The notes beneath the pieces were generated by a model, which saw only the letters and a program-made list of their open reading frames with translations, was not told where the DNA came from and ran no database searches. A stretch of 64,000 nt of DNA, taken from IMG/VR virus record IMGVR_UViG_3300037418_003165, positions 1-64,000 of that record; one strand, given 5' to 3'. Position numbers and translations under genes: made by a program. This DNA comes from a virus. Taxonomy: Duplodnaviria > Heunggongvirae > Uroviricota > Caudoviricetes. Positions 26,231-55,567 of this stretch are shown piece after piece; within the stretch, counting starts at the first letter, position 1, and every line of letters starts with the position of its first letter.

Positions 26231-26451
26231 GCGATCGTAAGCCCTACGAGACGTCCATCTCGCTGGAGGGCGCCCTCATCGGTTGGACAGACCGCGACGG
26301 CCAACTCCATGTGGAGCGCTGCCGGGGTGAGTGGCCCTGCCGGATCAGGTTGGTATCTGAACCCGATCTACCGCGCGCCTTGCGAAAACTCTCCGCCATT
26401 GAGGACATGGTGCGGGAGATCACCGGCGGGACAGGAGAACCGACGCCGTGA
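26227..26451 (+). CDS. Small hypothetical protein.
   Basis: GTGA overlap. Confidence 0.4.
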   Translation: MSDRKPYETSISLEGALIGWTDRDGQLHVERCRGEWPCRIRLVSEPDLPRALRKLSAIEDMVREITGGTGEPTP

Positions 26452-26738: not shown

Positions 26739-26992
26739 GCGACTGGCGCGGAGGCTTCTACGCTGCCGTTGCCGCGTGGCTCCGCGACCGTGAACCCGCC
26801 CTCGATATCGCGCGCGTCGTGGGCGTGGACGAGAGTATCGACATCAATCCCGGCTACTCGGTGGCCGACGACACGGTCGAGGTGAACCTTGAGGTCCGGT
26901 ACATGACGTCGGAGGGTGTGGAGCAGACGCATTCGCGGCTGGGCGGCCTCGGCGAAGTCATCCGGGAGATCACCGCGGGAGCGGAGTCGTGA
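26735..26992 (+). CDS. Small hypothetical protein.
   Basis: ATGA overlap. Confidence 0.4.
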   Translation: MSDWRGGFYAAVAAWLRDREPALDIARVVGVDESIDINPGYSVADDTVEVNLEVRYMTSEGVEQTHSRLGGLGEVIREITAGAES

Positions 26993-27201
26993 GCAAGCTG
27001 TTGTGTCAGAACTGCAAGGGCGAGATGCGTTGGAACCCAAACGCCCCGGCGTACCGGTGTAGCGATCCTGGCTGTCGGTGTGAGACGGCGCAGGGATGCT
27101 ATGAGCATGTCGGCGAGGATTGCACGCTGTTCCTGTGGCTGCTCCAGGTACCTGACGACGCCGAGGCGGGAGCGCCCAAGGTGGCGGCGGGAGAGTCGTG
27201 A
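26989..27201 (+). CDS. Small zinc-ribbon protein.
   Basis: GTGA overlap. CQNCKG...CSDPGCRC. Confidence 0.4.
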   Translation: MSKLLCQNCKGEMRWNPNAPAYRCSDPGCRCETAQGCYEHVGEDCTLFLWLLQVPDDAEAGAPKVAAGES

Positions 27202-32260: not shown

Positions 32261-33040
32261 ATGCCGCAAGATTCCAGACCTCTGAGATTCACCAGCGCCG
32301 CCGACGCGCTCACCGGTGACCGCGTGATCTGCGGCGAAGCCCGCGACATCATGGCCCGGCTGCCGTCCGGATCATTCGATGCCCTGATCACCGACCCGCC
32401 CTACTGCTCCGGCGGCACCACGACCAGCGAACGCACCACCCGCAGCGCGGTCGAGAAATACGTCTCCTCCGACTCGGTGAGCGGCAAGGCCATGCCCGAC
32501 TTCCCGGACCAGCGCGACCAGCGCGCATTCACCCTCTGGTCGTCGTTCTGGCTGACCGACGCCCTACGCCTCGTCCGCCCCGGCGGCCAGGCGCTCGTTT
32601 TCACCGACTGGCGGCAGCTACCTGCATTGAGCGACGCGCTGCAGGTCGCCGGGTGGCGCTGGCGCGGAATCGTAGTGTGGCGCAAGCCCGCCGCCCGCCC
32701 GCAGCCCGGCTTCAAGAACGAATCGGAATACATCCTGTGGGCGTCCAACGGGCAGCTGGACGCCGACCACAAGCCGCCATGCCTCCCTGGCGTCTACAGC
32801 TACTCCGCGCCGAAAGGCCGCAAGCGCCAGCACATCACGGCCAAGCCGGTCGAGCTGATGCGCGACCTCGTGCGCACCGTCCAGCCCGACGGCCTGATCC
32901 TGGACCCGTTCGCCGGCTCCGGCACCACCGGCGTCGCAGCGCGCGCCGAAGGCCGGCGGTTCCTGTGCATCGAAGGCACACCGGAATACAGCCAGATATC
33001 GGCCGTGCGACTCGCCGATCCCGACTCCGCCGCCGCGTAG
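32261..33040 (+). CDS. DNA methyltransferase (N6-adenine/N4-cytosine, beta-class).
   Basis: DPPY motif (ITDPPYCSGG) precedes the FxGxG motif (DPFAGSGTT). Confidence 0.75.
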   Translation: MPQDSRPLRFTSAADALTGDRVICGEARDIMARLPSGSFDALITDPPYCSGGTTTSERTTRSAVEKYVSSDSVSGKAMPDFPDQRDQRAFTLWSSFWLTDALRLVRPGGQALVFTDWRQLPALSDALQVAGWRWRGIVVWRKPAARPQPGFKNESEYILWASNGQLDADHKPPCLPGVYSYSAPKGRKRQHITAKPVELMRDLVRTVQPDGLILDPFAGSGTTGVAARAEGRRFLCIEGTPEYSQISAVRLADPDSAAA

Positions 33041-34606: not shown

Positions 34607-34897
34607 GTGGAGCGGCCCTCGCCGAGACCGGATAAGCACCCACCGAAAGGCACGGAAACGAGCGTGTCCTACTCCGATCCCTCCAGCGCCGCCGACCTCG
34701 AAAACCGGTTCGCCTACCACCCGGCGGCTACCCCCGAGCGCGGCGAAGCCCACCAGGCCGTCCGCGACGCCTGCCTCGGCCTCGCGCACTACCTCGATGA
34801 CGTCATCCCGCCCGGCCGCGAAAAGGCGCTCGCCTTGACCAACCTGGAACAGGTCATGTTCTGGGCCAACGGCGCAATCGCCCGCCAACCGGTATGA
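34607..34897 (+). CDS. Hypothetical protein.
   Basis: Listed ORF. The start may be the downstream GTG at 34664. Confidence 0.4.
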   Translation: MERPSPRPDKHPPKGTETSVSYSDPSSAADLENRFAYHPAATPERGEAHQAVRDACLGLAHYLDDVIPPGREKALALTNLEQVMFWANGAIARQPV

Positions 34898-36000: not shown

Positions 36001-36612
36001 TTGACCGTCATCGCGGCGATCGCGACCCCCGACCGGGTCATCATGGGCTCCGACACCGCCTGCGACTATGGCGGCACCACGATCTACCGGGCGAACGGAA
36101 AAATTCGCGAGCTGCGCACCAGCGACGAAGCCGAAGGCGAACGCGTCCTGCTCGGCTCCGCCGGCAACTCGGGAATCGGCCCATGCGCCGCGCGCACCGT
36201 CCACATCAAGTCCCTGCCCTCGGATCCGGACGACATCGTTGCCGTGGACGATTGGGCCGAAGCGATCGCCGAAGCGATCGCGGGTGCCCTGGCCGACGCC
36301 AACCCGCCGCTGACGCGCGCGGGCGACACCCACAGCAGCGCCGCGGCCGATGGTGTGATGCTCCTGGCCTGGCGCCAGCATCTGTGGACCATCACCGCGC
36401 ACTCGGCGATCCGGCCGGCGAACGGCATCGCCGCCATCGGATGCGGATGTGACCTCGCGCTCGGCGTCATGCTCAGCGGCGAGTACTTCGAGGCCGATCC
36501 CGGCGACTCCGTTGCGCTGGCGGTGAAACTGGCCAGCCGCTACATCGACGGCTGCCGCCTCGACCACCGCGGCCCGCTCATGCACGAGACCACCCCGGCC
36601 GGTGCCCGATGA
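36001..36612 (+). CDS. Ntn-hydrolase/HslV-like peptidase-fold protein.
   Basis: TTG start with an AAGGGAG RBS. N-terminal MT..VIAAIATPDRVIMGSDTA has Thr at position 2, like proteasome-type Ntn nucleophiles. Confidence 0.4.
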   Translation: MTVIAAIATPDRVIMGSDTACDYGGTTIYRANGKIRELRTSDEAEGERVLLGSAGNSGIGPCAARTVHIKSLPSDPDDIVAVDDWAEAIAEAIAGALADANPPLTRAGDTHSSAAADGVMLLAWRQHLWTITAHSAIRPANGIAAIGCGCDLALGVMLSGEYFEADPGDSVALAVKLASRYIDGCRLDHRGPLMHETTPAGAR

Positions 36613-37538
36613 TCATCGCGTTCCTCGGCAACTTCGGCGTCGACTACACCTCCGAGACCCACCACGCTGCCAGCCTCGAAGCCCTGGGCCACACCGTGAT
36701 CCGCCTGCAGGAGACGAAAGCCACCGCCGACGACATCGTCACCGCGGGCGTCGACGCCGACCTGTTCGTCTGGGTACACACGCACGGCTGGGACACCCCC
36801 GACATCGGCATCGCGCTGACCATCCTCCGCGACGCCGGCACCGTCCTGCTGTCCTATCACCTGGACCGCTGGATCGGACTGCGCCGCCAGGCCGATATGC
36901 GCGCCGACGCACCCTACTGGCAGCTCGACCACTTCTTCACCGTCGACCGCGTCCAAGCCGACTGGCTCAACACGCACACCAGCATGCGCGGCCACTACAT
37001 CCCCGCCGGCGTCTACGGCCCCGAGTGCTACATGGCCACCCCGCGCACCCGCTTCGACGTCGCATTCGTCGGCAGCAAGGGCTACCACCCGGAGTATCCC
37101 TACCGGCCGCGCCTCGTCGAGTGGCTCGCCGACACCTACGGCGACCGGTTCCGGCACTACGGTGGCGGAGGCCTGCCCACCGTGCGCGGCGCCGAGCTGA
37201 ACGGCGTCTACGCGGATGCGAAAGTCGTTGTCGGAGACAGCCTCTGCCTCGACCCGCAATACGCCGGGCACTACTGGTCCGACCGAATCTACGAGACCAC
37301 CGGCCGCGGCGGATTCATCATCCACCCGCGTCTGGCCGGCCTCGACAGCCAGTTCATCGACGGCGAGCACGCGGTCTTCTACGACCACGGCAACCTCGAC
37401 CAGCTGCGCGAGCTCATCGACCACTACCTGGCCGCTGATGACGAACGTGAAGCGATCCGCCGCGCCGGCCACGAGCACACCCGCGCCACCCACACCTACG
37501 CGCACCGGTGGGCCGAGATCCTGGAGACCATCGCGTGA
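36609..37538 (+). CDS. Glycosyltransferase (CgeB/YkvP-like GT1-fold).
   Basis: ATGA overlap. The C-terminal half resembles the CgeB-like GT domain as I recall it. Confidence 0.5.
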   Translation: MIIAFLGNFGVDYTSETHHAASLEALGHTVIRLQETKATADDIVTAGVDADLFVWVHTHGWDTPDIGIALTILRDAGTVLLSYHLDRWIGLRRQADMRADAPYWQLDHFFTVDRVQADWLNTHTSMRGHYIPAGVYGPECYMATPRTRFDVAFVGSKGYHPEYPYRPRLVEWLADTYGDRFRHYGGGGLPTVRGAELNGVYADAKVVVGDSLCLDPQYAGHYWSDRIYETTGRGGFIIHPRLAGLDSQFIDGEHAVFYDHGNLDQLRELIDHYLAADDEREAIRRAGHEHTRATHTYAHRWAEILETIA

Positions 37539-38251
37539 CCGAGATGGTCGAAACGCTGATCAACGGCCGCTGGACGCTGAAGCTCCCCGAGCACCGCGCG
37601 GCGCGGCCCGAATGGGACCTCCACAACGGCGGCTGGGAGCGGGCCCGCCTCGACCACATGCACTCCACCACCAGGCCCGGTGACCGCGTGCTGTACATCG
37701 GCGCCGAAGAGGGCGACATGTGCGCGCTGCTGCGGAGCTGGGGCGCGCGCCTGATGCTCGTCGAGCCGAACGAGGCCGTCTGGCCGAACATCAAGGCCAT
37801 CTGGAACGCCAACGGCTTCGACGAAGTGCCGTGGACATTCGTCGGCTTCGCCGGCCGGGAGCGCCGCGACGACGAATGGGGCTGGGAAACCCGCGAATGG
37901 CCTCCCTGCGCGGACGGCCCGGTCATCGGTGACCACGGATTCAAGGAACTCCGCGATCCGGGCGACCGGCCGATCATCACGATCGACGAAATCACCCGGA
38001 GCGGCTTCGTTCCCGACACGATCTCGATGGACATCGAGGGCGCCGAATGGGAAGCCCTGCAGGGCGCCGAGCAGACGCTCACCGACCACCGGCCGCGGAT
38101 CTACCTGAGCCTGCACCCGGAATTCCTGATCGACCAGTACGGCAAGTACTCCTACGAGGTACGCCGGTGGATCATCGACCACGGCTACCGGGAAACCCTG
38201 CTGGACTACCAGCACGAAGCGCACTTCGTCTACGAACGGACCGTGGCGTGA
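37535..38251 (+). CDS. FkbM-family SAM-dependent methyltransferase.
   Basis: MDIEGAEWEAL matches the characteristic FkbM motif. GTGA overlap. Confidence 0.65.
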   Translation: MTEMVETLINGRWTLKLPEHRAARPEWDLHNGGWERARLDHMHSTTRPGDRVLYIGAEEGDMCALLRSWGARLMLVEPNEAVWPNIKAIWNANGFDEVPWTFVGFAGRERRDDEWGWETREWPPCADGPVIGDHGFKELRDPGDRPIITIDEITRSGFVPDTISMDIEGAEWEALQGAEQTLTDHRPRIYLSLHPEFLIDQYGKYSYEVRRWIIDHGYRETLLDYQHEAHFVYERTVA

Positions 38252-38592
38252 GCGCGGGAATGCCAGCCAGCATCTGGCTCGTCAAGTTCGGCGAGCTGGT
38301 GCGCGACTACTTCGGTGAAGCGCCCTACCAAGTCGGATCATCGTTGTTTTCCAAGAGCTTTCGCGATGTCGACGTCCGGCTGATCCTCGACGACGAGGAC
38401 TTCGAACAGCGGTTCGGCGCCATACGAAGCGCGGAACTCAACCCGAAATTGGCGGCGATCACCTTGGCGTTCTGCGCGCTCGGTCGTGAAATGACCGGCC
38501 TGCCGATCGACTTCCAGATCCAGCCCGTGTCGTGGGCAAACGAGAAGTACCCGACCAACCGGAGTCCCTTGAGCTCGATCGAGCACGTATGA
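38248..38592 (+). CDS. Small nucleotidyltransferase-fold-like protein.
   Basis: VGSSLFSKSFRDVDVRLIL resembles a minimal nucleotidyltransferase GS...D.D motif. Alternative ATG at 38260. Confidence 0.35.
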   Translation: MSAGMPASIWLVKFGELVRDYFGEAPYQVGSSLFSKSFRDVDVRLILDDEDFEQRFGAIRSAELNPKLAAITLAFCALGREMTGLPIDFQIQPVSWANEKYPTNRSPLSSIEHV

Positions 38593-38831
38593 CCGCCGAA
38601 TGGCCGCTGATGACCATCACATTCACCCCGGACACCCGGGACGAATGGATCCTGGCCCTTCGCCACGCTCCGTACGGCACAGTACTGGCCGACTGCGACG
38701 GTGACATCTGGACAAAGCTGGGCGGCCCAGACGGGTATAACTGGCTGCGCACGCACGGCGGATGGGCGAGCGCCGAGGAAGTGGCCGACTACGCCCCGTT
38801 CCGCGAGCCTCCGATCGGGTCGTGTCCGTGA
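38589..38831 (+). CDS. Small hypothetical protein.
   Basis: ATGA overlap. Confidence 0.4.
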   Translation: MTAEWPLMTITFTPDTRDEWILALRHAPYGTVLADCDGDIWTKLGGPDGYNWLRTHGGWASAEEVADYAPFREPPIGSCP

Positions 38832-40432
38832 TCCCGGTCGTGCGCCTAGCCCCCGGTGATCAGTGGGACCAGAACATGCTCCGTCTGCTGCTCGCCGACC
38901 GCCTCTACCCGCACGGCCTGGACCTTGAGGAAGTCGAAGGGTGGCCCGACGCTGCCGGCATCGTGCTCGTCATCCCGGGCCGCTACTGGCACAACCGCAC
39001 GGCCGAGATCAGCGCCGCGATCGCGCGCTACGCATGGGTGCTGGCCATCCGGACCTCGGATGAGGAAGCGCTCCTCGACATCAGCGCGATCGCACACCCG
39101 AACATTCTGTGGTGGGTGCAGACTCCGCGCACCGACAGCGACCACACCGCGGTGCGCTACCTGCCCCTCGGCTTCCCGCCGCACTTCAACGGCCTGCCGC
39201 GCATGGGCCCGAAGCGCGTCGATGTCTTCCTGTCCGCGCAGAACACCCACGAGCGCCGCCGCGAATGCTTCGACGCGCTCACCCAGGTCGACCGCAGCAA
39301 GACCGTGCACGAGACCCCCGGCTTCACTCAAGGCCTGCCCGTGCACGACTACGCCGGCCGCATGCGCGCCACCCGCGTCGCGCCGTGCCCGTCCGGAGCG
39401 GTCAGCCCGGACAGCTTCCGCGTCTATGAAGCCCTCGAGTCGCACGCCATCCCGATCGCTGACGACATCTCGCCGGTCGACCCGAGCCAGGGCTACTGGG
39501 CCGCGATGTTCCCGGACGCGCCCTGGCCGACGATCAGCCGCTACAGCGACCTGCCCGGCTATATCGGCGACAGCCTCATGCACTACCCACGGCTGGCCAA
39601 TCGGACGGCCGCCTGGTGGATCGCGCAGAAACGGCGCATGGGGGAGCGGCTAATCCGTGATCTGGACGCGCTCGGCGCCGCACCGGCGCCGCGGCGGCCG
39701 CCGATCACCGTGCTGATATCGAGCAGCCCGATCCCGTCGCACCCGAGCACCGCGGTGCTCGAGGAGACCGTCGAATCGGTGCGCGACCGGCTACCCGACG
39801 CCGAGATCGTGCTCATGCTCGACGGCGTGCGCGCCGAACAGGAGCACGCCCGCACCGACTACGAGCGCTATATCCAGCGCGTGCTAGAGCTCGCAGACCA
39901 CCAGTGGCACAACGTGTTACCGCTGATCTTCGACGAGCACCTGCACCAGGGCGAATGCACCAAACGAGCCCTCGAATACGTCCGCACGCCGCTAATCCTG
40001 TTCGTCGAGCACGACACCCCGCTGGCCGGCGGTATCCCGTTCGACGACATGGCGGCCGCCGTCACCAGCGGCAGCGCCAACGTCATCCGCCTGCACCACG
40101 AAACCAGGATCCTCGACGAGCACCGCTATCTGATGCTCGACGACGGCCCGCGCGTCGTCGACGGCGTGCCGATGCAGCGAACGATCCAGTGGAGCCAGCG
40201 CCCACACCTGGCATCGGTCGCCTGGTACCGCGGCCTCCTCGATCGCGCCTTCCCACACGGAGAGCGCGACTTCATCGAGGACAAGGCGTACGGGCTGCTG
40301 ATCAACGACCACCGGCGCGACGGCCACATGGGCTGGCTCGGCTGGCGCACCTGGATCTACACCCCCGACGGCAACGTACTGCGCAGCTACCACACCGACG
40401 GCCGGAACGGAGCAGACAAATATGTCGGGTGA
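38828..40432 (+). CDS. Two-domain glycosyltransferase (C-terminal GT-A/GT2-like).
   Basis: ITVLISSSP...LMLDGV...FVEHDTPL is GT-A-like, with a DxD-type ED motif. GTG overlap start. Confidence 0.55.
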   Translation: MIPVVRLAPGDQWDQNMLRLLLADRLYPHGLDLEEVEGWPDAAGIVLVIPGRYWHNRTAEISAAIARYAWVLAIRTSDEEALLDISAIAHPNILWWVQTPRTDSDHTAVRYLPLGFPPHFNGLPRMGPKRVDVFLSAQNTHERRRECFDALTQVDRSKTVHETPGFTQGLPVHDYAGRMRATRVAPCPSGAVSPDSFRVYEALESHAIPIADDISPVDPSQGYWAAMFPDAPWPTISRYSDLPGYIGDSLMHYPRLANRTAAWWIAQKRRMGERLIRDLDALGAAPAPRRPPITVLISSSPIPSHPSTAVLEETVESVRDRLPDAEIVLMLDGVRAEQEHARTDYERYIQRVLELADHQWHNVLPLIFDEHLHQGECTKRALEYVRTPLILFVEHDTPLAGGIPFDDMAAAVTSGSANVIRLHHETRILDEHRYLMLDDGPRVVDGVPMQRTIQWSQRPHLASVAWYRGLLDRAFPHGERDFIEDKAYGLLINDHRRDGHMGWLGWRTWIYTPDGNVLRSYHTDGRNGADKYVG

Positions 40433-40604
40433 CATCACCGACGAGGAACAGCAGCTGGTGGCCGGCATGCCGAAGCATGTGGCCGCCGGCTATATCCGCG
40501 CCAAGCGCGCTGCTGAACAGAAGCGAGCGAAACGCGCTCCCGGCGAATGGGATTGGGACGCCGTCGCGGAGGCTATCGCCGCCATGGGAGACCTCGCCCG
40601 ATGA
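40422..40604 (+). CDS. Small hypothetical protein.
   Basis: Listed ORF overlapping the upstream stop. Confidence 0.35.
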   Translation: MSGDITDEEQQLVAGMPKHVAAGYIRAKRAAEQKRAKRAPGEWDWDAVAEAIAAMGDLAR

Positions 40605-41644
40605 CCCTCGGCCTGATCGCGCGCGCGGACGACACCGGCCTGGGGATCCAGACCTGGGAATTCGCCCGCCACATGCACCCGGACCGCGTGATGGTCATCG
40701 ACATCTCGCACCTCAAACGCAACACCCTGCACCCCGACCGGTTCCCGGGCGCGACGATCGTCCACGGCTTCCCCGACGCCACCGACATCGAATACTTCCT
40801 CGACGGCCTGGACGTCGCGTTCACCGCCGAGAGCACCTACGGGCCGCTGCTGCTGCCCACGGCCGAACGCGCGGGCGTGCGCACCGTCGTCCAGTACAAC
40901 TACGAATTCCTCGACGAGCGGCCCGAACACGGCACCGCGGCAACAGTTCTGGCCGCGCCGAGCAGCTGGCACTACGACGACGTCGAGCACCCGGGCAAGA
41001 TCATGCTGCCGGTGCCGATCGCCACCAGCCGATTCCCGAAGCGCGAGACCACAGACCGGGCCCGGCGATTCCTGCACGTAATCGGCCGGCCCGCTATCCA
41101 CGACCGCAACGGCACCGCCGACCTCGTCCAGGCCCTGCGGTTCGTCCGCGCCGATATCGAGGTCGTCTTCGCGTGCCAGGACCGCCGCTACATCAGCGAC
41201 TTCACCGCCGAGGTGAACTTCCCGCCGAACATCAAACTCACCTGCCTCAGCGAGCAGGCGAACTACTGGGACCTCTACCGCGACATCGACGCGCTGATCA
41301 TGCCCCGCAAGTTCGGCGGCCTGTGCCTGCCCGTCCAGGAAGCGCTCGGCGCCGGAATCCCGGTGATCATGCCCGACATCGCGCCGAACAACACCTGGCT
41401 GCCCAAGGACTGGCTCGTGCCCGCGACGCGCACCGGCGAATTCAAGGCGCGCCGAATGATCGACCTGCACATGGTCGACCACATCGCCCTCGCGGCCCGA
41501 ATCGACCTGCTCGCCGGTGACAGCGACTTCTACTGCGGCGCGGTCGAATCCGCGCACCAACTCGCCGATGCCCTCAGCTGGGACGCCATGCGCCCCCAGT
41601 ATGAGCAAGCCCTCGCCGGCCGACCCGCAAGGAGCGCCGCGTGA
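40601..41644 (+). CDS. GT-B glycosyltransferase (GT4-like).
   Basis: PVQEALGAGIPVI corresponds to the EX7E region of retaining GT4 enzymes. ATGA overlap. Confidence 0.6.
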   Translation: MTLGLIARADDTGLGIQTWEFARHMHPDRVMVIDISHLKRNTLHPDRFPGATIVHGFPDATDIEYFLDGLDVAFTAESTYGPLLLPTAERAGVRTVVQYNYEFLDERPEHGTAATVLAAPSSWHYDDVEHPGKIMLPVPIATSRFPKRETTDRARRFLHVIGRPAIHDRNGTADLVQALRFVRADIEVVFACQDRRYISDFTAEVNFPPNIKLTCLSEQANYWDLYRDIDALIMPRKFGGLCLPVQEALGAGIPVIMPDIAPNNTWLPKDWLVPATRTGEFKARRMIDLHMVDHIALAARIDLLAGDSDFYCGAVESAHQLADALSWDAMRPQYEQALAGRPARSAA

Positions 41645-42093
41645 CCACCGACCACGACATCGACGCCGACCGAATCTTCAACGCCGGCCACGGCACCACC
41701 TGGCAGCCCAGCCGCACCGCCGCGGTCCTGCCTTCCGGCGCACACCTCGAATACGGCGGCGCCGGCGCACGCGGCGCGGTCCTCGCCCGCTTCGCCGGTG
41801 ACCTGCTCTGCGTCGCCACCCGCACCATCACCTCGCACCTGCAGATCGCCTCGCAGGAGAAGTGGTGCGAACGCGCGAGCAGTCCATATCGCGTCGTCAC
41901 CGACCGGATCGTCCGGTTTCGGTGCGACTGTGGCCGCGGATTCGAGATCCGACCACAGGGTGGCCTCGACGCGGACTACCGGATCCTCGAAACCTATCGG
42001 GAAGCCGGGATCGGCATGGAACACGCCCTTACCTATGTGCGCGCCGGCGAGATCGAGCGCCCCTGCGAACACTGGCTCCCGATCGCCCTGTGA
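41641..42093 (+). CDS. Hypothetical protein.
   Basis: GTGA overlap. Confidence 0.45.
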   Translation: MTTDHDIDADRIFNAGHGTTWQPSRTAAVLPSGAHLEYGGAGARGAVLARFAGDLLCVATRTITSHLQIASQEKWCERASSPYRVVTDRIVRFRCDCGRGFEIRPQGGLDADYRILETYREAGIGMEHALTYVRAGEIERPCEHWLPIAL

Positions 42094-42728
42094 GCCCCAC
42101 GGTCAGCAGCGCGGTCGTCGCGCACACCGACCGCCTCGGCGCCGCCACAGAACTCGCTGCGCTCGTCGACGCACAGATCAGCGTCGATGACGGCTCGCTC
42201 GGCGCCGAAACCAACCACCTGCGCGCATGGGCCATGACCCGCAACCGCGACACGGACTGGGCGCTCGTCCTCGAAGACGACGCCCAACCCGTCGCCGGCT
42301 TCACCGAGCAGCTGCACGCCGCGCTTCGGACGGCGCCGGCGCCGATCGTGTCGCTGTACCTCGGCCGCTCGAAGCCACGCACCTGGCAGCACCGCATCGC
42401 GCAGGCACTCGACCACGCGGACATGCTCAACGCCCACTGGATCACCACCCACCACCTACTCCACGCGGTCGCGGTCGCCATGCGCACCGAGCTGCGGGAC
42501 GACTGGATCGAATGGGCCGCCAGCAACGAGCTCCCCATCGATGAGCGCCTCGGCGCCTGGGCCCGGGCCCGCGAGCACCGCATCACCTACGCCGTGCCAT
42601 CGCTCGTCGAGCACGCCGACTGGCCGACCCTCATCCGCCACCGCGACGGCCAACCGCGAGGCCAGGGCCGCATCGCATGGCGCACCGGCACCCGCGACGC
42701 ATGGACCAGCCGATCCGTATTCATCTGA
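42090..42728 (+). CDS. Hypothetical protein, possibly glycosyltransferase-related.
   Basis: GTG overlap start. In frame with listed ORF 41862..42728. Confidence 0.4.
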   Translation: MSPTVSSAVVAHTDRLGAATELAALVDAQISVDDGSLGAETNHLRAWAMTRNRDTDWALVLEDDAQPVAGFTEQLHAALRTAPAPIVSLYLGRSKPRTWQHRIAQALDHADMLNAHWITTHHLLHAVAVAMRTELRDDWIEWAASNELPIDERLGAWARAREHRITYAVPSLVEHADWPTLIRHRDGQPRGQGRIAWRTGTRDAWTSRSVFI

Positions 42729-42735
42729 GTCGGAG

Positions 42736-43281
42736 GTGGTGGACATCAGCAGCGACCGCCGCGGCATCGGTGGCCACCAGTCGGCGCGCGCCGGTTCGAA
42801 TGTGTGGCTGACGCCCTTGCGCCTCATCCAGGCACTGGGACCGTTCGACCTCGACCCGTGCTCGCTTCAGCACCGCCCATGGGACACAGCCCGCCATCAC
42901 ATCGCACCACCCGATGACGGCCTCACCGCTCCGTGGTGGGGGCGCGTATGGCTCAACCCGCCATATAGCGATGTCGCTCGCTGGATCGCGCGACTGGCCG
43001 ACCACGGCACCGGCACCGGAATCGTGTTCGCGCGCACCGAGACACGGTGGTTTCACGAGTCCATCTGGTCCCGCGCGAGCGCGCTCCTATTCCCTGCAGG
43101 GCGCATCACCTTCTGCCTGCCAGACGGGGCGGAGCCACAGAGCAACTCGGGAGCTCCGAGCGTGCTGGTCGCCTACGGCCAAGGCGACGCAGATCTACTC
43201 CAGCAGCAAACCGCGCTGCCGGGCGCATTCATCCGCCTGACGAATGGAGAACAGGATGGTCGACCGCTCAGGCGGCGTTGA
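42736..43281 (+). CDS. Dam-family DNA N6-adenine methyltransferase.
   Basis: WLTPLRL...WLNPPYS (NPPY catalytic motif). GTG start next to GGAGG. Confidence 0.65.
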   Translation: MVDISSDRRGIGGHQSARAGSNVWLTPLRLIQALGPFDLDPCSLQHRPWDTARHHIAPPDDGLTAPWWGRVWLNPPYSDVARWIARLADHGTGTGIVFARTETRWFHESIWSRASALLFPAGRITFCLPDGAEPQSNSGAPSVLVAYGQGDADLLQQQTALPGAFIRLTNGEQDGRPLRRR

Positions 43282-44044
43282 AAGCACGTGCGTGTTCTGC
43301 GAGATCATCGGCGGTGAAGCGCCGGCAACGATCATCGAGGAATGGCCGGACGCCCTCGCGATCGTTCCGCTCGGGCCGGTTGTCGACGGGCATGTGCTGG
43401 TCATCCCGCGCGAGCATGTGCGAGACGTATCGACCTCGCCGGAAGTGAGCGCAGCGACCATGGCCCGGGCCGCCGAATACGCAGCGCGCCATGACGCGGT
43501 GAACATCATCACGAGCCAGGGCGCGGCCGCGACGCAGAGCGTCCCGCACCTGCACCTTCATGTCGTGCCGCGCACCGTCGACGACGGCCTCATGACACCG
43601 TGGGGCACGGTGTATGGCGACGATCCGCGTGCGCAGCACTGGTGCCGCACCGCGCAGCAGCTGCAGGACCGGCTCGATCGGATGACAGCCATCGCCGCGG
43701 TGCCGGTCGACGCGGGGGTGCGAAGCGCCATCGGCACGCTCGGGATGGGGGCGCTGGCCTTGCGAGGTGAAGCCTTGGATGCGCTCGTCGACGAATGCTC
43801 CAAGATCCTCATGCCCCACTATCCCGACGTGCTGATGCGGATCACTGGGGATGCTGCCAGCCCAGTGCTCCCCAGCCTGGACCGCCAGCGCCTGGACATG
43901 GCGCGCGTGGCGCTCATCGGCACCGGCTACTTCACCGAGGACCAGGTGGGCGACGATATCGCGCCGCGGATCACCGAGATGGCATCCGACCTGGGCTATC
44001 GGATCGAGGAGCTCGAACAGCGTCTGGCTTCCGCCGCTCACTGA
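43256..44044 (+). CDS. HIT (histidine triad) family nucleotide hydrolase/transferase with a C-terminal extension.
   Basis: HLHLHVVPR histidine triad. GGAGAA RBS. Confidence 0.7.
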   Translation: MVDRSGGVESTCVFCEIIGGEAPATIIEEWPDALAIVPLGPVVDGHVLVIPREHVRDVSTSPEVSAATMARAAEYAARHDAVNIITSQGAAATQSVPHLHLHVVPRTVDDGLMTPWGTVYGDDPRAQHWCRTAQQLQDRLDRMTAIAAVPVDAGVRSAIGTLGMGALALRGEALDALVDECSKILMPHYPDVLMRITGDAASPVLPSLDRQRLDMARVALIGTGYFTEDQVGDDIAPRITEMASDLGYRIEELEQRLASAAH

Positions 44045-46445: not shown

Positions 46446-46901
46446 GTGGCCATGCCTCAGCGCAAGAAGCACCCGGGCACGCGAGCCCGCAGAAACACTG
46501 CCTCCACCGCCGCGACCCTCAGCGGTGACGGGCCGGCCGCGGTGATCCGCCCAGAGCTCCCGGACCACGAAGGCGACGGCTGGCATCCGCAGACCATCGC
46601 CTGGTGGAACGACATGTGGGCCTCGCCCATGGCGGCGGAGTACATCGACGCCGACAAACACGCGCTCTACATGCTCGCCGTGCTGATCGACGAGTTCTGG
46701 TGTGAACCCAGCCAGAAGCTCGCCGCGGAGATCCGGCTCCAGCGCGCGGCGTTCGGCCTCACGCCGTACGACCGCCGCCGCCTCGAATGGACGATCGAGA
46801 CCACCGAGGAGGCCAAGGACCGCGGCGACCGTCGACGGCAGAACGCCGGCGTCCCGCAGCCGACCGCGGCCGTCGACCCGCGCCTGGCCCTCGTGAAGTA
46901 G
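46446..46901 (+). CDS. Terminase small subunit.
   Basis: Position immediately upstream of the large terminase. WWNDMWASPMAAEY...LAVLIDEFW resembles actinophage TerS. Confidence 0.6.
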   Translation: MAMPQRKKHPGTRARRNTASTAATLSGDGPAAVIRPELPDHEGDGWHPQTIAWWNDMWASPMAAEYIDADKHALYMLAVLIDEFWCEPSQKLAAEIRLQRAAFGLTPYDRRRLEWTIETTEEAKDRGDRRRQNAGVPQPTAAVDPRLALVK

Positions 46902-46908
46902 ACCGCCG

Positions 46909-48555
46909 GTGGCGGTACTCATCGTCCCGCCCCTCGACCTGACCTACCCGACCCTCGGACCCGACCTCGCGGACTTCATCGAGGAACGGTTCACGTTCGG
47001 GCCAGGATCGCTGGCGGGAGAGCCGGCGGTCCTCGACGACGAGAAGCGCGCCGCGCTGTACCGGCTGTACGAGGTGTACCCGCAGGGGCACCCGCTGGCC
47101 GGGCGGCGCCGCTTCAACCAGGGCGCCATCGAGTGGCGTAAGGGCCTGGCCAAGACGGAGTTCGCGGCGTGGGTGTGCGGCCTCGAGCTGCACCCGGAGG
47201 CGCCGGTTCGCTGCGACGGCTTCAACGCCGCGGGCGAACCGGTCGGCCGGCCGGTGAAATTCCCGTACATCCCGATGATGGCGGTCACCGAGGAACAGGT
47301 GAGCGAGCTCGCCTATGGCGTGCTCTGCTACGTCCTCGAGCACAGCCCCGACGCCGACCTGTTCGACATCGGCGCAGACCGGATCATCCGGCTCGGCCGC
47401 AACGGCGCGCCGGACGGCCGCGCGGTGCCGGTATCGAACGCCCCGGGCAGCCGCGACGGTGCGCTGACCACCTTCCAGCACTTCGACGAGCCGCACCGGC
47501 TGTACCTGCCGTCGCAGGTCGGCGCGCACGAAACGATGATGCAGAACCTGTCGAAGCGGGCGCTGGAAGATCCGTGGAGCTTCTACACCAGCACCGCGGG
47601 CAAGCCTGGACAGAAGAGCATCCAGGAGAGCCTTCGTCGCGGCGCCGAACGCATCGAACGTGGTGAGGTCGAGAAGCCGAAGATGTTCTTCTTCGGCCGC
47701 TGGGCTGGACCCGCACACGACGATCTCAGCACCGTCGAGAAGCGCATCGCAGCGATCGCGGAGGCCACCGGCCCGGCCGGTGAATACGGCCCTGGGCAGT
47801 TCCAGTCCATCGCCGAGGACTACGACCGCGAAGGCTGCGACCGGGCCTACTGGGAGCGCGTCTACCTCAACCGGTGGCGCGCCGGCGGAAACCAGGCCTT
47901 CAACATCACCAAGATCGTCGCCAACCTCGTTCGGCCCGCCGGGACCGTCATCCCGGCGGGCGCGTTCGTCGCCGGCGGCTTCGACGGCGCACGGATGCGG
48001 GACTCGACCGGTCTGGTGCTCACCGATATCCAGACCGGCCTGCAGCAGTGCGTGGCTCACTGGCAGCGGCCCGAGGGCGTCGAGGAGTGGGAGGTCGACG
48101 AGGCCGAGGTGACTGCGGCCTTCGAAGACGCCATGGACCGCTACGAGGTGTGGAAGATCTACGCCGATCCGCCGCACTGGACTGCGACGCTCGGTGATTT
48201 CTCGGTGCGATGGCCGGAGCGGATCGAGGAATGGTGGACCCACCGGCAGAAGCCGATGGCCTATGCGCTGCGCGAGTACATCGAGGGCCAGGACGCCGGC
48301 CTCGTTTCCTACGGCGGCACCGAGAAGCAGCTCGACGTCATGATCGACCACCTCGGCAACGCCGAACGCAAGGAACTGCGGATGTACGACGACCAGGGAT
48401 TTCCGCTGTACATCCTGCAGAAACCCGATGGCCGGCAGGACTGCAAGATCGACCTCTCCGTCTGCGGAGTCCTGTCCTGGAAAGCAACCCTCGACGCCCG
48501 CAAATCGGGCGCGAAACCCCGCCCGAAAGCCCGCGCCCCCCGGCGCCTGTATTGA
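46909..48555 (+). CDS. Terminase large subunit.
   Basis: 548 aa. The N-terminal ATPase region is followed by a nuclease half. Position before the portal gene. Confidence 0.75.
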   Translation: MAVLIVPPLDLTYPTLGPDLADFIEERFTFGPGSLAGEPAVLDDEKRAALYRLYEVYPQGHPLAGRRRFNQGAIEWRKGLAKTEFAAWVCGLELHPEAPVRCDGFNAAGEPVGRPVKFPYIPMMAVTEEQVSELAYGVLCYVLEHSPDADLFDIGADRIIRLGRNGAPDGRAVPVSNAPGSRDGALTTFQHFDEPHRLYLPSQVGAHETMMQNLSKRALEDPWSFYTSTAGKPGQKSIQESLRRGAERIERGEVEKPKMFFFGRWAGPAHDDLSTVEKRIAAIAEATGPAGEYGPGQFQSIAEDYDREGCDRAYWERVYLNRWRAGGNQAFNITKIVANLVRPAGTVIPAGAFVAGGFDGARMRDSTGLVLTDIQTGLQQCVAHWQRPEGVEEWEVDEAEVTAAFEDAMDRYEVWKIYADPPHWTATLGDFSVRWPERIEEWWTHRQKPMAYALREYIEGQDAGLVSYGGTEKQLDVMIDHLGNAERKELRMYDDQGFPLYILQKPDGRQDCKIDLSVCGVLSWKATLDARKSGAKPRPKARAPRRLY

Positions 48556-51677: not shown

Positions 51678-52499
51678 ATGTCTGTAGAGCATTTCATCCC
51701 CGAACTTTGGGCAGCCCAGATGCTCGAGCGCTGGAATGCCATGACCATTTTCGCGAATCTCGTGAATCGCGAATATGAGGGCACTGCCGCGAAGGGCAAC
51801 ACGGTGCACATCACCGGTGTTGTGCAGCCCGAGGTGAAGGACTACAAGGCGAACAACCGGACGACTTCGGCGGACGCCATCAGCGACACCGGGATCGACC
51901 TGCTCATCGACCAGGAGAAGAACTTCGACTTCTACGTCGACGACATCGACCGCGTCCAGGCGGCCGGCTCGCTGCAGCCCTACACCGACGCCGCCGGCAA
52001 CGGCTTGGTGCAGGATTCCGACCAGTTCCTCGCTCAGATGATGGTCGACCACGGCACCGCCCTGCCGGGCACCGCGCCGACCACCGGCGACGACGCGTTC
52101 AACCTGGTCCGCGACGCCCGCAAGAAGCTGAACAAGAACAACGCGCCCTCCGACGGCCGCGTCCTCGCCGTAAACGCCGAGTTCGAAGGCCTTCTGCTGG
52201 GCGCGAATTCGAAGCTGACCGCGTTCGACACCTCGGGTGACGCGCAGGGCCTGCGTCAGGGCACCATCGGCTCTCTGCTCGGTTTCCGGGTGGTGACCTC
52301 CAACAACCTGCCCGACGTCGACAGCCCGCAGTTCGTCGCGTTCCACCCGCTGGCGGCCGCCTACGTGTCGCAGATCGACACCGTGGAAGCGCTGCGGGCG
52401 GAGAACAAGTTCGCCGACCGCGTGCGTGGCCTGCACGTCTACGGCGGCAAGGTCGTGCGCCCGGAGGGCGTGGTCGTTTACAACCCGGCGGGCAGCTGA
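51678..52499 (+). CDS. Major capsid protein.
   Basis: Gene order. 273 aa. Strong AAGGAGTGAG RBS. Confidence 0.7.
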   Translation: MSVEHFIPELWAAQMLERWNAMTIFANLVNREYEGTAAKGNTVHITGVVQPEVKDYKANNRTTSADAISDTGIDLLIDQEKNFDFYVDDIDRVQAAGSLQPYTDAAGNGLVQDSDQFLAQMMVDHGTALPGTAPTTGDDAFNLVRDARKKLNKNNAPSDGRVLAVNAEFEGLLLGANSKLTAFDTSGDAQGLRQGTIGSLLGFRVVTSNNLPDVDSPQFVAFHPLAAAYVSQIDTVEALRAENKFADRVRGLHVYGGKVVRPEGVVVYNPAGS

Positions 52500-53416: not shown

Positions 53417-53728
53417 GTGGAAGACGTCTACATCGAGGACAAGTTCTTCCAGCTGTACGAGAAGGGCCCGGAGTGCCGAGCCATGATCTGGCTGTCGCTG
53501 GAGCTGTACGAGGCGCTGTATCGGGAGGTCGTCGCGAAACGCACCGGCCGCCTCGCCGCCTCGACCCGCATCTTCACCGAACTCGAGCAGGGCCGGTGGA
53601 TGGGCACGCTGGCGGTCACCGCGCCCTACGCGGCAAGCCATGAATTCGGCACCGACGACGGCGATGAGCGGATCATCGCTGGCCACCACGACCTGAACAA
53701 GGTTCTCAACATCATGGCGCGCGTATGA
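53417..53728 (+). CDS. Tail completion / head-tail protein.
   Basis: Gene order. GTG start just after the upstream stop. Confidence 0.5.
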   Translation: MEDVYIEDKFFQLYEKGPECRAMIWLSLELYEALYREVVAKRTGRLAASTRIFTELEQGRWMGTLAVTAPYAASHEFGTDDGDERIIAGHHDLNKVLNIMARV

Positions 53729-54279
53729 GCAGCCTCCGGTTCCCGAACTGGTGGAAGGGCGGCTTCCCGGACCGCGAGCTCGTCGTGATGGATGCCCTGC
53801 AGCCCGTGCTCAACCTCGTCGACGTGCTCGACGACGACGGAAACCAGGTGTACGACGACGGCGATGCCCGCCGCCCGTACGCCTGCACATGGCTGCCGAG
53901 CGACTACCGCGACCGGCTGCCGGTGATCCGTGTGTACCGCGGCGGCGGCGCTACCGATGTCGGTTCGCTGCGCGACCCGGCCTCGGTCCAGGTCGCGGTG
54001 ATCGCCGCGACCAGGGCGGCGTCGTGGGAGCTGATGGAGTACTGCCGGCAGTGGCTGCTGTCGTATCAGTCCGGCGGCACCGTTTACCGCGCCGACGGGA
54101 GCAAGACGCTGATCGACACGGTCGAGGAAATGGTGGGGCCGCAGCAGCTTCCGGAACTGAACCCCGACGACCGGATGGTGCCGCTGACCTTCCGCGTCAT
54201 CTGCCGGCGCCAACGCGGGCTGCCGGACTACCAGAAGATCCGGGAGTCTCTGCAGCGCATGTGGGCGCTGGCCAGCTGA
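53725..54279 (+). CDS. Tail terminator / minor tail component.
   Basis: Gene order. ATGA overlap. Confidence 0.5.
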   Translation: MSSLRFPNWWKGGFPDRELVVMDALQPVLNLVDVLDDDGNQVYDDGDARRPYACTWLPSDYRDRLPVIRVYRGGGATDVGSLRDPASVQVAVIAATRAASWELMEYCRQWLLSYQSGGTVYRADGSKTLIDTVEEMVGPQQLPELNPDDRMVPLTFRVICRRQRGLPDYQKIRESLQRMWALAS

Positions 54280-54904: not shown

Positions 54905-55567
54905 ATGAGTGATTTCGCGACCGATGTCCGGCAGGGCAATCCCGATCTCGAACTTGCCGTTCTCGACTGGGCCATCTACCTGGCCCCGAAGAACACGGCG
55001 ATCCCGGTGGCCTTCACCGACGCCGCCGGCGTGATCCTGCCGCTGCCCGAGATCTACGTTCCGGTCGGCAACTTGGACAAGAAGGCCGGCACCAAGATCG
55101 CCACGGCGATCAACAGCACCCCCGTCGAAACTTACGGCGAGCAGGGCCCGACGCGGATCATCCGCAAGTCCCGCGACACCACCGTGGACTTCACGATGCA
55201 GCAGACCTCGGCGGTGTCTCTCGGCGCGTTCTGGGGGCAGGACTTCACCAACGAGAAGTCCAATCCTTCCTCGGGTGAGGTGAACCTCGAGATCAGCGAG
55301 TCCGCGTTCAACATCGAGTACTCGCTGATCATGATCGGCTTCGACGGCGAGGAAGACCACGAGATCTACACGATCCTCGACTCCGGCCGGGCGACGCTGC
55401 AGAAGTCGGGCGACATCACCTACAACGATGACGGCATCGCGCTGTACCCGGTCACGTTGCAGCTGCTCAAGCACAAGACCCTCGGCTACGCGACCCGCAT
55501 CAGCTACGCGGGCAAGGGCTGGAAGCCGCTGGCAGTCGCCGCGGGCTTCGAAGCCGACGCCAGCTGA
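54905..55567 (+). CDS. Major tail protein.
   Basis: Gene order, immediately before the G/GT chaperone pair. GAAGGAG RBS. Confidence 0.65.
   Translation: MSDFATDVRQGNPDLELAVLDWAIYLAPKNTAIPVAFTDAAGVILPLPEIYVPVGNLDKKAGTKIATAINSTPVETYGEQGPTRIIRKSRDTTVDFTMQQTSAVSLGAFWGQDFTNEKSNPSSGEVNLEISESAFNIEYSLIMIGFDGEEDHEIYTILDSGRATLQKSGDITYNDDGIALYPVTLQLLKHKTLGYATRISYAGKGWKPLAVAAGFEADAS

Follow-up and report, generated by a model that had tools for sequence, protein, structure and literature searches.

The closest described precedents for the locus analyzed here are the glycosylation cassettes of mycobacteriophages, namely Che8 gp108-110 (cluster F), Corndog/Firecracker gp33-36 (cluster O), and gp75-77 plus gp82 of M. 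abscessus prophages. The gp108-, gp109- and gp34-type enzymes are mutually homologous across these three cassettes. Che8 gp110 and Corndog gp38 are described in a secondary source as essential glycosyltransferases (GTs) for capsid glycosylation, the capsid and tail tube of cluster O phages are modified by an O-methyltransferase and three GTs, and, again by a secondary statement, mycobacteriophage glycans sit at the C-termini of capsid and tail-tube subunits. Virion O-glycosylation by such cassettes is reportedly the subject of Freeman et al. 2023. The capsid glycosylation machinery of the chlorovirus PBCV-1, which includes the exostosin-like xylosyltransferase A075L and the multi-domain GT/methyltransferase A064R, is that of a eukaryotic giant virus. 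Its glycans are attached through N-linkage at Asn residues of atypical sequons, without a C-terminal Ser tag.

The window considered here, a 64-kb stretch of an approximately 90-kb contig, belongs to a Nocardia/Mycobacterium-type phage. From the listing of open reading frames and an analysis of start codons, ten genes (g1 to g10) form a single translationally coupled operon at 36001-42728 on the plus strand, which encodes four GT proteins with five GT domains and one FkbM methyltransferase and is followed on its 3′-side by genes for a Dam-like methyltransferase (MTase) and a HIT protein:

36001..36612, +, g1: 203 aa, first operon gene, weakly HslV/Ntn-hydrolase-like, accessory
36609..37538, +, g2: 309 aa, GT-B glycosyltransferase of the Glyco_trans_1_2 (CgeB-like) family, core module gene 1
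37535..38251, +, g3: 238 aa, FkbM-family SAM methyltransferase, core module gene 2
38260..38592, +, g4: 110 aa, minimal nucleotidyltransferase (MNT)-like protein
38589..38831, +, g5: 80 aa, small translationally coupled ORF
38828..40432, +, g6: 534 aa, two-domain glycosyltransferase, core module gene 3 and signature protein of the module
40422..40604, +, g7: 60 aa, small ORF between g6 and g8
40601..41644, +, g8: 347 aa, GT4-like (GT-B) glycosyltransferase, core module gene 4
41641..42093, +, g9: 150 aa, accessory, GTGA overlap
42090..42728, +, g10: 212 aa, Che8 gp110-type GT-A glycosyltransferase
42736..43281, +, g11: Dam-like DNA N6-adenine methyltransferase, flanking gene
43256..44044, +, g12: protein with a HIT domain at aa 20-107, extended C-terminally by about 150 aa, flanking gene

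Eight of the nine junctions within g1 to g10 are 4-bp ATGA/GTGA stop/start overlaps, the g6/g7 junction being an 11-bp overlap. A g4 start at 38260, which the identical database protein P0269 indicates, would leave an 8-bp gap after g3. GC3 of the operon genes is 0.80-0.92. The GTs are apparently soluble (maximum KD19 ≤ 1.36, with no TM-grade segments found), and neither a flippase nor a polymerase or transporter was found with the operon. The terminase lies about 4 kb downstream, and the cassette occupies a slot directly upstream of HNH/TerS/TerL that is common to Che8, M. abscessus prophages and a Nocardia nova prophage. The initial annotation had described a glycosylation island of four or five GTs with an FkbM methylase at these positions, and profile searches of the ORFs returned both GT and FkbM matches.

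By sequence comparison, g10 is the only operon enzyme homologous to characterized mycobacteriophage virion-glycosylation genes. It matches PHROG 854 ("glucosyltransferase"; 7.5e-74) and is 47.5% identical to Che8 gp110 over its full length, 43% to Firecracker gp36, 46% to prophiGD27 gp82 and 86% to the N. nova protein, with homologs in 735 sequenced phage records. As a full-length ortholog of gp110 in the same genomic slot, the protein earlier listed as another putative GT gives substance to the relation with mycobacteriophage virion glycosylation that had been suggested for this island. The operon shares with the mycobacteriophage cassettes this gp110-type GT-A enzyme (43-48% identity) and a position beside packaging and head genes; with cluster O, a methyltransferase alongside the GTs, although of FkbM type here and of the cluster O O-MT type there; and with Che8, a capsid protein 67% identical to gp6 and Ser-terminal capsid and tail-tube subunits. 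In contrast, the gp108-, gp109- and gp34-type enzymes have no counterpart here. In their place stand four unrelated enzymes (GT1_2, FkbM, an exostosin-like two-domain GT and a GT4-like GT), and the glycan is therefore expected to differ from that of the mycobacteriophages.

Of these four, g2 is the CgeB-like GT that had been proposed (PF13524 Glyco_trans_1_2, E = 5e-25, 88.6 bits against a cut-off of 25; phrog_28745, 2.7e-37). It is 77% identical to its N. nova prophage ortholog, and its matches among sequenced phages number only 9, all of them Streptomyces phages. The FkbM assignment of g3 likewise holds (PF05050, E = 5e-11; TIGR01444, 44.2 bits against a cut-off of 37.7), and the N. nova prophage has a class-I SAM MTase in its place. 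For g8, the predicted GT4-like GT-B fold agrees with matches to PF13692 and PF00534 at 2-4e-5 that fall slightly under the Pfam cut-offs (25.1 versus 27) and with a phrog_2170 glycosyltransferase match (1.3e-10). The 534-aa g6 had been read as a two-domain GT-A enzyme, an assignment that we reject: its N-terminal half (approximately aa 1-285) is a GT47/exostosin-like GT-B, and only the C-terminal half (approximately aa 290-534) is GT-A. The GT47-like domain comes closest to PBCV-1 A075L, and the GT-A domain resembles polypeptide GalNAc-transferases; both folds have precedents in protein and capsid glycosylation. Neither g6 nor g8 has a match among 50,697 sequenced phage records.

At least 569 IMG/VR contigs encode a relative of g6, and in 80 of these, spanning 31-73% GC, we examined the surrounding genes. 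Downstream of g6, g8 is present in 80/80 loci; g2 occurs in 69/80, invariably upstream and on the same strand, and g3 lies between g2 and g6 in 57/80. The order g2-g3-g6-g8 is collinear across the 80 loci, and the module usually adjoins terminase, portal or head genes, of differing families. Natural fusions join g6 to g8 (L027, L042, P0123, P0134, P0157 and P0225) and g2 to g6 (P0149). A set of four enzymes unlike the known mycobacteriophage ones thus recurs in hundreds of uncultivated phages. The absence of g10 from 76 of the 80 loci suggests that another enzyme primes there or that the module has another role there; g10 and the module occur together in N. nova and in loci L045, L070, L078 and L084. 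The first reading of this DNA had missed both the lack of relationship between four of the five enzymes and those published for Che8/Corndog, and the fact that these four form a widespread module.

Judging the C-termini of capsid and tail tube "not obviously Ser/Thr-rich", that reading left the target open among virion, DNA and envelope. Richness in Ser/Thr is the wrong criterion, and the terminal residue itself favors the virion. Three structural proteins of the window are relevant:

51678..52499, +, major capsid protein: 273 aa, ends ..YNPAGS, predicted glycan acceptor
53725..54279, +, tail terminator: 184 aa, ends ..WALAS (phrog_123, 1e-19)
54905..55567, +, major tail (tube) protein: 220 aa, ends ..FEADAS, predicted glycan acceptor

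The capsid protein is 66.7% identical to Che8 gp6, which ends ..NKTGS, and the tail protein matches phrog_476 (2.5e-41). From its last residue, the tail terminator might be a further acceptor. The capsids of Che8, prophiGD27 and Firecracker and the tail tubes of Che8 and Firecracker, some of which belong to unrelated families, are also all Ser-terminal. Among Che8-type capsids, a Ser end is found in 5/5 GT-linked members, which all end x-G-S and form one clade, versus 0/6 without a gp110-type match, including that of Brevibacterium AGM3 at 57% identity. In the phrog_476 tail-tube family, the Ser end is present in 3/3 members with the GT, among them Sparky (..GGGS) and Poise (..FGGS), versus 0/4 controls, which are Arthrobacter/Corynebacterium phage homologs. 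Pooling the two families gives 8/8 versus 0/10 (Fisher p = 2.3e-5, uncorrected for phylogeny), the control phages being defined by absence of a gp110-type GT only, so that other GTs may be present. This co-variation in two protein families points to the virion as the target. Unrelated module phages also show 100% Ser-terminal major head proteins (phrog_10, 5/5 and 11/11; phrog_777, 4/4), major tail proteins (phrog_117, 4/4; phrog_2491), an Ig-domain protein (12/12) and a protein in the tail-tube slot (12/12), whereas the interleaved adaptor and Neck1 proteins are 0% Ser-terminal against a background of 10-15%. Two observations run counter to this pattern: capsids with a Ser end (L148, ..TAAS; L150, ..AVRS) also occur in some relatives from the low-GC portal lineage that lack the module although 9 kb or more of their upstream sequence is available, and one TerS family is Ser-terminal in 5/5 members.

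Gene content, folds, synteny, g10 homology, module distribution and the Ser/GT co-variation lead us to propose that the operon probably O-glycosylates the phage's own virion proteins at a C-terminal Ser, in the cytoplasm and late in expression. The acceptor, the order of action and any glycan are predictions of this model. As the priming enzyme, g10 would recognize the free C-terminal tail of capsid and tail-tube subunits (a small residue, then Ser-COOH) and place the first sugar on the terminal Ser, to which the soluble GT-B enzymes g8 and g2 would attach additional or branching sugars. Extension of the glycan would fall to the exostosin-like g6, which combines two differing catalytic domains in a single polypeptide, possibly acting as an alternating two-sugar co-polymerase comparable to EXT1/EXT2, K4CP or KfiA/KfiC. 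O-methylation of sugars by g3 may serve as decoration or as a non-reducing-end cap that limits chain length. Capsid and tail tube would thereby acquire a coat of methylated glycans that changes how the surface is recognized; in mycobacteriophages this recognition is by antibodies, and in nature it may concern adsorption, stability or host surface factors.

GT4 and GT1_2 enzymes often use lipid-linked or soluble acceptors, which counts against a virion target. The GTs and methyltransferase might instead remodel a glycan or glycolipid of the host cell wall (arabinogalactan, LAM, GPL or methylated polysaccharides), changing the surface of the lysogen or infected cell in lysogenic conversion or superinfection exclusion. 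We consider this unlikely, as no membrane-anchored GT, polyprenyl-phosphate GT, flippase, transporter or TM-grade segment was found, and the cassette is one coupled operon in the late/packaging region rather than an isolated opposite-strand moron with its own promoter. Envelope remodeling would also leave the terminal-Ser signature of capsid and tail proteins unexplained, the g10 family is tied to virion glycosylation, and the module spans contigs of 31-73% GC with very different envelopes. The possibility that g10 places one sugar or a short glycan on the virion, as in Che8, while g2-g3-g6-g8 separately make a free or secreted methylated polysaccharide or glycosylate another host or phage non-structural protein, draws on the separate distributions (g10 in 735 sequenced phages without the module, the module mostly without g10) and on the position of g9 between the two in the window. 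Translational coupling here and the five co-occurrences listed above speak against it, as do the Ser-terminal capsid and tail proteins of module phages that lack g10; no export machinery for a free polymer was found, and we regard such a division of function as improbable.

Modification of DNA is the classical role of phage GTs, and a diversity of DNA glycans is reported, according to a citing source, in Pyle et al. 2024. Glycans built on modified phage-DNA bases against restriction, together with the neighboring DNA MTase(s), would fit the Dam-like MTase after the operon, the adjacent HIT nucleotide-handling protein, and the ParB-N6_N4 DNA MTase found between module and TerL in low-GC loci. 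This role is very improbable in our judgment: the scanned ORFs of the window (64 kb of the approximately 90-kb contig, the rest of which may carry such a gene) include neither a thymidylate-synthase-like hydroxymethylase nor any other base-modifying family, the exostosin-like, GT4 and CgeB-like enzymes and the sugar-type FkbM MTase differ from known DNA GT types, and the characterized g10 homolog acts on virion proteins.

Under the favored reading, virion glycosylation, more distant systems offer partial parallels. PBCV-1 A075L has a single domain where g6 has two, and gene organization differs. Relative to the exostosins EXT1/EXT2 and the two-function glycosaminoglycan polymerases of bacteria (K4CP, KfiA/KfiC), g6 has about 11% sequence identity and no transmembrane anchor or Golgi context, and its relative domain orientation differs (TM ~0.33). 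Its C-domain is termed GT-A here rather than GT64, and its polymerase activity is purely inferred. E. coli O9a WbdA/WbdD represents ABC-transporter-dependent O-antigen assembly with a methyl-capping terminator. By analogy, the soluble or peripheral GTs of the operon, including a multi-domain and putatively polymerizing one, could act with a methyltransferase that caps the non-reducing end and sets chain length. However, O9a assembly depends on an undecaprenyl-PP lipid acceptor, an ABC exporter and a ligase, all three missing here, and the acceptor in our model is a protein C-terminus.

The remaining operon genes (g1, g4, g5, g7 and g9) are accessory ORFs of the lineage, outside the conserved machinery. 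The Ntn-hydrolase-like character suggested for g1 finds some echo in a phrog_1040 "peptidase HslV family" match (2.8e-8), faint NCBIfam HslV matches and an N-terminal M-T start; g1 had no match in Pfam or, by sequence, in the PDB, and is missing from the N. nova prophage and the 80 viral loci. Similarly, g4 gave no match in profile searches, and its nucleotidyltransferase-like label leans on an invariant GSS..DVDV..D84 motif and an AF2 model (pLDDT 86) whose top Foldseek matches, though weak, are MNT antitoxins and HI0073 (E = 5.5e-3, prob 0.98). It has 829 homologs, the best 120 of the 829 at 66-87% identity in addition to P0269, and those elsewhere lie in neighborhoods without glycosylation genes or the module; g4 is probably an inserted independent gene rather than a sugar-activating enzyme. 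No match to g5, which overlaps g4 by ATGA and g6 by GTGA, was found in Pfam, PHROGs or NCBIfam, nor in any of the searches a meaningful match to g9, which is not kept in relatives (N. nova and the 80 viral loci). A small ORF in the position of g7, which overlaps the end of g6 by 11 bp and the start of g8 by 4 bp, also occurs in N. nova (82 aa), L011 and L093, with no sequence similarity detected between g7 and these. Downstream, the Dam-like MTase and HIT enzyme are where they had been described: g11 (PF05869, 7e-13; phrog_111, 2.9e-41) is preceded by its own RBS, GAGTCGGAGG, and is not counted as part of the glycosylation machinery, and g12 matches PF01230 (5.7e-17) and the NCBIfam HinT-like family (2.3e-11).

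The glycosyltransferase (GT) cassette of this virus lies in a run of ten plus-strand genes within 36001-42728, here called g1 to g10 in order. Eight of the nine junctions are 4-bp ATGA or GTGA stop/start overlaps and the one between g6 and g7 is an overlap of 11 bp (a g4 start at 38260 would leave 8 bp between g3 and g4), and on the basis of these overlaps we regard g1 to g10 as one translationally coupled operon. A Dam-like methyltransferase gene (g11, 42736-43281) and a HIT protein gene (g12, 43256-44044) follow, each with its own ribosome-binding site. The window has a GC content of 66% and derives from a siphovirus-type phage or prophage, with the following packaging and structural genes:

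46446-46901, TerS
46909-48555, TerL
48574-50007, portal
51678-52499, capsid gene
54905-55567, major tail protein
56423-61711, tape measure

TerL is ~63% identical to M. abscessus prophages and ~60% identical to cluster F mycobacteriophages, and the capsid shares 67% identity with Che8 gp6 and 87% with its counterpart in a Nocardia nova SH22a prophage. Among the window ORFs scanned, none was recognised as an integrase, and megablast of 36001-44044 against 50,697 sequenced phage records returned no close relative.

Profile matches to GT and FkbM families, together with the ten-gene operon, confirm the glycosylation island that an initial annotation had placed at 36001-43281; its interpretation was broadly right, with details corrected and the target now narrowed toward the virion. 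The g2 protein (309 aa) is confidently assigned as a CgeB-like GT-B enzyme (Glyco_trans_1_2, PF13524, 88.6 bits against a gathering threshold of 25), and g3 (238 aa) as an FkbM-family methyltransferase (PF05050, 43.5 bits, cut-off 22.7; NCBIfam TIGR01444, 44.2 bits, cut-off 37.7), the substrate of which is presumably a sugar hydroxyl. The g8 protein (347 aa) is GT4-like, with a clear PHROG GT match (1.3e-10) and Pfam scores below threshold for both PF13692 (25.1 bits, cut-off 27) and PF00534 (23.7 bits, cut-off 26.4). The two-domain g6 protein (534 aa) contains an N-terminal GT47 GT-B domain, an exostosin-type feature, and a GT-A domain that resembles polypeptide GalNAc-transferases. The GT-A enzyme g10 (212 aa) matches phrog_854, 'glucosyltransferase' (7.5e-74). 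The similarity to HslV/Ntn proteins for which g1 had been labelled Ntn-hydrolase-like exists, as a weak match, and no function was assignable to g5, g7 or g9. A phmmer search of g1, g4, g6, g9 and g10 against PDB sequences gave nothing significant, and in relatives of the cassette none of g1, g4, g5, g7, g9, g11 or g12 is conserved alongside it.

Two genes were considered as candidates for supplying activated sugars. The g4 protein (110 aa, 38260-38592, plus strand) has no profile match and belongs to a family without a Pfam model; it carries a Pol-beta-type GSS..DVDV..D signature that is invariant in 28 homologs, and the best match to its AF2 model (pLDDT 86), a weak one, is to MNT antitoxins (E=5.5e-3, TM ~0.5). 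The family is unusually conserved, with 829 matches, the best 120 of which are 66-87% identical over ~110 aa, and its other members occur in varied actinophage contexts, not beside GT genes. Because of this MNT-like fold and the lack of linkage to GT genes elsewhere, we rejected g4 as an enzyme that forms sugar nucleotides. A glycosylation function for g4 is unlikely, and by analogy to MNT antitoxins, which AMPylate HEPN toxins, its fold suggests a role in phage counter-defence. A GalT-like sugar-1-phosphate nucleotidyltransferase role for g12 was set aside; g12 matches HinT/ATP-adenylyltransferase-like proteins and is absent from the relatives, and is thus considered a flanking gene. In the product of this plus-strand gene (43256-44044), the HIT domain spans residues 20-107 only, and the remaining ~150 residues have no detectable family.

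The g10 protein shares 47.5% identity with Che8 gp110 across 204 aa (E=5e-59), 43% with its cluster O (Firecracker) counterpart, and 46% with that of the M. abscessus prophage prophiGD27-1. The cassettes of these three (Che8 gp108-110, Firecracker gp33-36, and prophiGD27-1 gp75-77 plus gp82) are homologous gene for gene, their partner proteins being 47-66% identical among themselves, whereas the gp110-type enzyme is all that the window has in common with them. No window protein gave a BLASTP match (E<=0.1) to the gp108-type (O-methyltransferase/GT) or gp109-type (GalNAc-T-like) partners when compared with Che8 gp108/gp109, Firecracker gp33-35 and prophiGD27 gp75-77. According to secondary sources, capsid glycosylation requires the GT gp110 in Che8 and the GT gp38 in Corndog, an O-methyltransferase and three GTs modify the capsid as well as the tail tube in cluster O, and the glycans reside at the C-termini of both capsid and tail-tube subunits. 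A gp110-type gene is present in 735 sequenced phage records. Sequenced phages as a whole offer no match to g6 or g8, and g2 matches only nine Streptomyces phages, at ~30% identity. Because g10 is widespread among sequenced phages and g6 and g8 are absent from them, the locus is best described as a gp110-type enzyme held in common with the known cassettes, to which a different group of elongating or decorating enzymes has been joined. Virion glycosylation in mycobacteriophage-like phages is a known phenomenon, and it is the enzyme set that is new, with no earlier account of it in the literature searched.

This enzyme set, the g2-g3-g6-g8 module, is far from rare. The g6 protein has >970 database relatives, and an exhaustive search of 1.84 billion representative proteins returned 712 clusters at E<=1e-30 and 3,829 at E<=1e-3, nearly all of full-length, two-domain proteins. 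By protein-database names, relatives in cultured genomes come from Nocardia nova, Nocardia spp. and Mycolicibacterium moriokaense. A g6 relative is encoded on at least 569 IMG/VR contigs; among the best 80 of these loci, which range from 31 to 73% GC, BLASTP detected g8 in 80/80, g2 in 69/80 and g3 in 57/80, with many of the g2 and g3 misses falling on truncated contigs. Gene order in the 80 loci is always g2-g3-g6-g8 on a single strand, and natural g6+g8 and g2+g6 fusions occur. A g10 gene lies beside the module only in four actinophage-like loci of the 80 and in N. nova, whose syntenic SH22a prophage (CP006850, ~6.53-6.55 Mb) has orthologs of g2, g6, g8 and g10 at 59-86% identity. Carriers of the module number in the hundreds among uncultivated phages and include several prophages of Nocardia and Mycolicibacterium, but no sequenced phage isolate. 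The module sits directly upstream of TerL-portal or between the portal and other head genes, often with a DNA methyltransferase between it and TerL-portal as in the window, and the terminase and portal families of these contigs vary (Phage_portal, SU10/P22-like, SPP1-like). That linkage to the packaging and head block persists across unrelated structural modules argues for a late, virion-related function.

Several other features recur around the module. An unannotated family of ~266 aa (for example 14103-14855 in the viral locus L007), without a Pfam or PHROG match, lies 3′ of the GT4-like gene in 36/80 loci and may be a fifth, unrecognised component, one that is absent from the window. The window encodes two DNA methyltransferases on the plus strand, an N6_N4-type enzyme at 32261-33040 and the Dam-like enzyme at 42736-43281. 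In low-GC loci, the position between the module and TerL is repeatedly taken by a ParB-N6_N4 methyltransferase (17 loci, for example 15042-16325 in L007), such that a neighbourhood of GT module, DNA methyltransferase and terminase is found in distant phages.

The initial annotation had sought a Ser/Thr-rich tail as the mark of a glycosylation target; the signature found instead is a terminal Ser, which we infer to be the modified residue.

C-termini of capsid and tail-tube proteins
Capsid, window: ..NPAGS
Capsid, Che8: ..NKTGS
Capsid, prophiGD27: ..NRAGS
Capsid, Firecracker (unrelated family): ..PLVGS
Tail tube, Che8: ..SDGS
Tail tube, Firecracker: ..KGDS
Tail tube, window (unrelated family): ..EADAS

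Che8-type capsids end in Ser in 5/5 GT-linked cases and in 0/6 homologs from the non-gp110 side, the latter from Brevibacterium AGM3, Clostridium, Bacillus, Pelagibacter and Rhizobium (genera without a gp110-type match) and from Gordonia Jace, whose GT status is uncertain. The Brevibacterium AGM3 capsid is 57% identical and ends in ..TYTAV. Tail tubes of phrog_476 are Ser-terminal in the window, Sparky and Poise, all of which carry the GT, and in 0/4 Arthrobacter/Corynebacterium homologs. With both families pooled, a terminal Ser is present in 8/8 proteins with the GT versus 0/10 without (Fisher p=2.3e-5, relatedness ignored). The tail terminator of the window (phrog_123, 53725-54279, plus strand) is also Ser-terminal (..WALAS), and there may therefore be more than two glycan acceptors.

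The same ending appears in module phages unrelated to actinophages. Their major head proteins are Ser-terminal in 5/5 high-GC and 11/11 low-GC cases for phrog_10 and in 4/4 for phrog_777, and the low-GC capsids (loci L093-L133), although only 33-55% identical overall, all end in an invariant G-[TS]-G-[TS]-V-S. Major tail proteins of phrog_117 (4/4) and phrog_2491 (likewise 100%) end in Ser, as do an Ig-domain protein, a small connector-region protein and the protein encoded at the tail-tube position, upstream of chaperone and tape-measure genes (12/12 each). Several virion proteins encoded downstream of the low-GC capsid genes end in [V/I]-S, and the interleaved adaptor and Neck1 proteins are 0% Ser-terminal, against a background of 10-15%. 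The query alignment for the portal-lineage locus scan was a subset of 10 portal sequences. Ser-terminal capsids also occur in some relatives that lack the module (L148, L150), and a TerS family upstream in low-GC loci is Ser-terminal in 5/5, which is outside the prediction of a virion-glycosylation model.

Our tentative reading, to which we give somewhat less than an even chance, is that g2-g3-g6-g8 constitutes an undescribed, widespread phage virion-glycosylation system that extends far beyond actinophages, to contigs that span 31-73% GC and whose terminase, portal and capsid families are unrelated, and that its substrates are marked by a free C-terminal Ser (x-G-S in actinophages; in low-GC phages, G-T-G-T-V-S on capsids and [V/I]-S on the decoration, connector and tail-tube proteins). 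In the mechanism proposed for the operon, g10 would prime the terminal Ser of capsid and tail-tube subunits in the cytoplasm, g8 and g2 would then add sugars, and the two-domain g6 would extend the chain, possibly as an alternating co-polymerase like the exostosins, with O-methylation by g3 serving to decorate or cap the glycan. For phages without g10, the polypeptide GalNAc-transferase-like GT-A domain of g6 would be the obvious candidate for priming. The literature searched contains no prior description of an exostosin-type GT in bacteriophages or of a C-terminal-serine glycosylation rule, which is not proof that none exists.

The cassette could instead remodel the host envelope. We disfavour this because no cassette GT contains a hydrophobic segment of transmembrane grade (maximum KD19 1.36) and no flippase, lipid-carrier GT or exporter is present; remodelling would also leave the terminal-Ser pattern unexplained. 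Serotype conversion of the Gtr type was rejected, as it requires a membrane flippase, a bactoprenol-linked GT and a polytopic GT, and the cassette has no GtrA/GtrB-type Pfam match. Action of the GTs on phage DNA is similarly disfavoured, since no base hydroxymethylase or similar base-modifying family was found among the ORFs scanned in the window, which covers 64 kb of a source contig of ~90 kb, and the cassette enzyme types are unlike known DNA GTs. A possible alternative is a split function, in which the virion is the substrate of g10 and the four-gene module acts on something else. Their separate distributions would fit such a division, but the two are coupled in one operon in the window, and the Ser signature is present in module carriers that lack g10, both of which weaken this reading.

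Virion glycosylation, shown only recently and in a few mycobacteriophages, dulls antibody recognition there, a point that bears directly on phage therapy against Mycobacterium infections. In the present locus a gp110-type enzyme is paired with an entirely distinct group of sugar-building enzymes, which implies other glycans and, with them, other antigenic or surface properties. If the module is the widespread system proposed here, glycan-coated virions would be common in nature, at odds with the present view that outside Mycobacterium phages virion glycosylation has little evidence behind it, and a terminal Ser would be a sequence-readable predictor of glycosylated virion proteins. This rule is a cheap and testable prediction of which virion proteins are modified, and adding or removing the terminal-Ser tag, or swapping the elongation module, could tune phage immunogenicity or display glycans. 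The exostosin-like g6 would be a compact, soluble bacterial-virus version of glycosaminoglycan-polymerase architecture, and may serve glyco-engineering.

Additional features of the window lie outside the cassette. A 96-aa protein encoded 1.1 kb upstream of the operon (34607-34897, plus strand) has a strong match to the Acb2/Tad1 hairpin domain (PF24729, E=7.8e-21) and is a candidate sponge for cyclic nucleotides, one that would counter CBASS/Thoeris defence. Between the tail terminator and major tail protein genes, a 170-aa ORF on the minus strand (54290-54802) has a lipoprotein-signal-like N-terminus (..LLAAAVCAGTAACGDS), which suggests a prophage-expressed moron within the tail gene block. 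The left part of the window encodes, on the plus strand, an SPFH/Band-7 protein (8171-9106), a TROVE (Ro60-like) plus VWA protein (15813-17375) and a RhuM-family protein (22232-23296, E=1.6e-109). Three small plus-strand ORFs within ~1.2 kb (26015-26230, 26705-26992 and 26989-27201, of which the second and third are neighbours that overlap) have C-termini of the form G-x-E-S (..TGGES, ..AGAES and ..AAGES), and these three (26015-27201) may be paralogs or have a common C-terminal motif.
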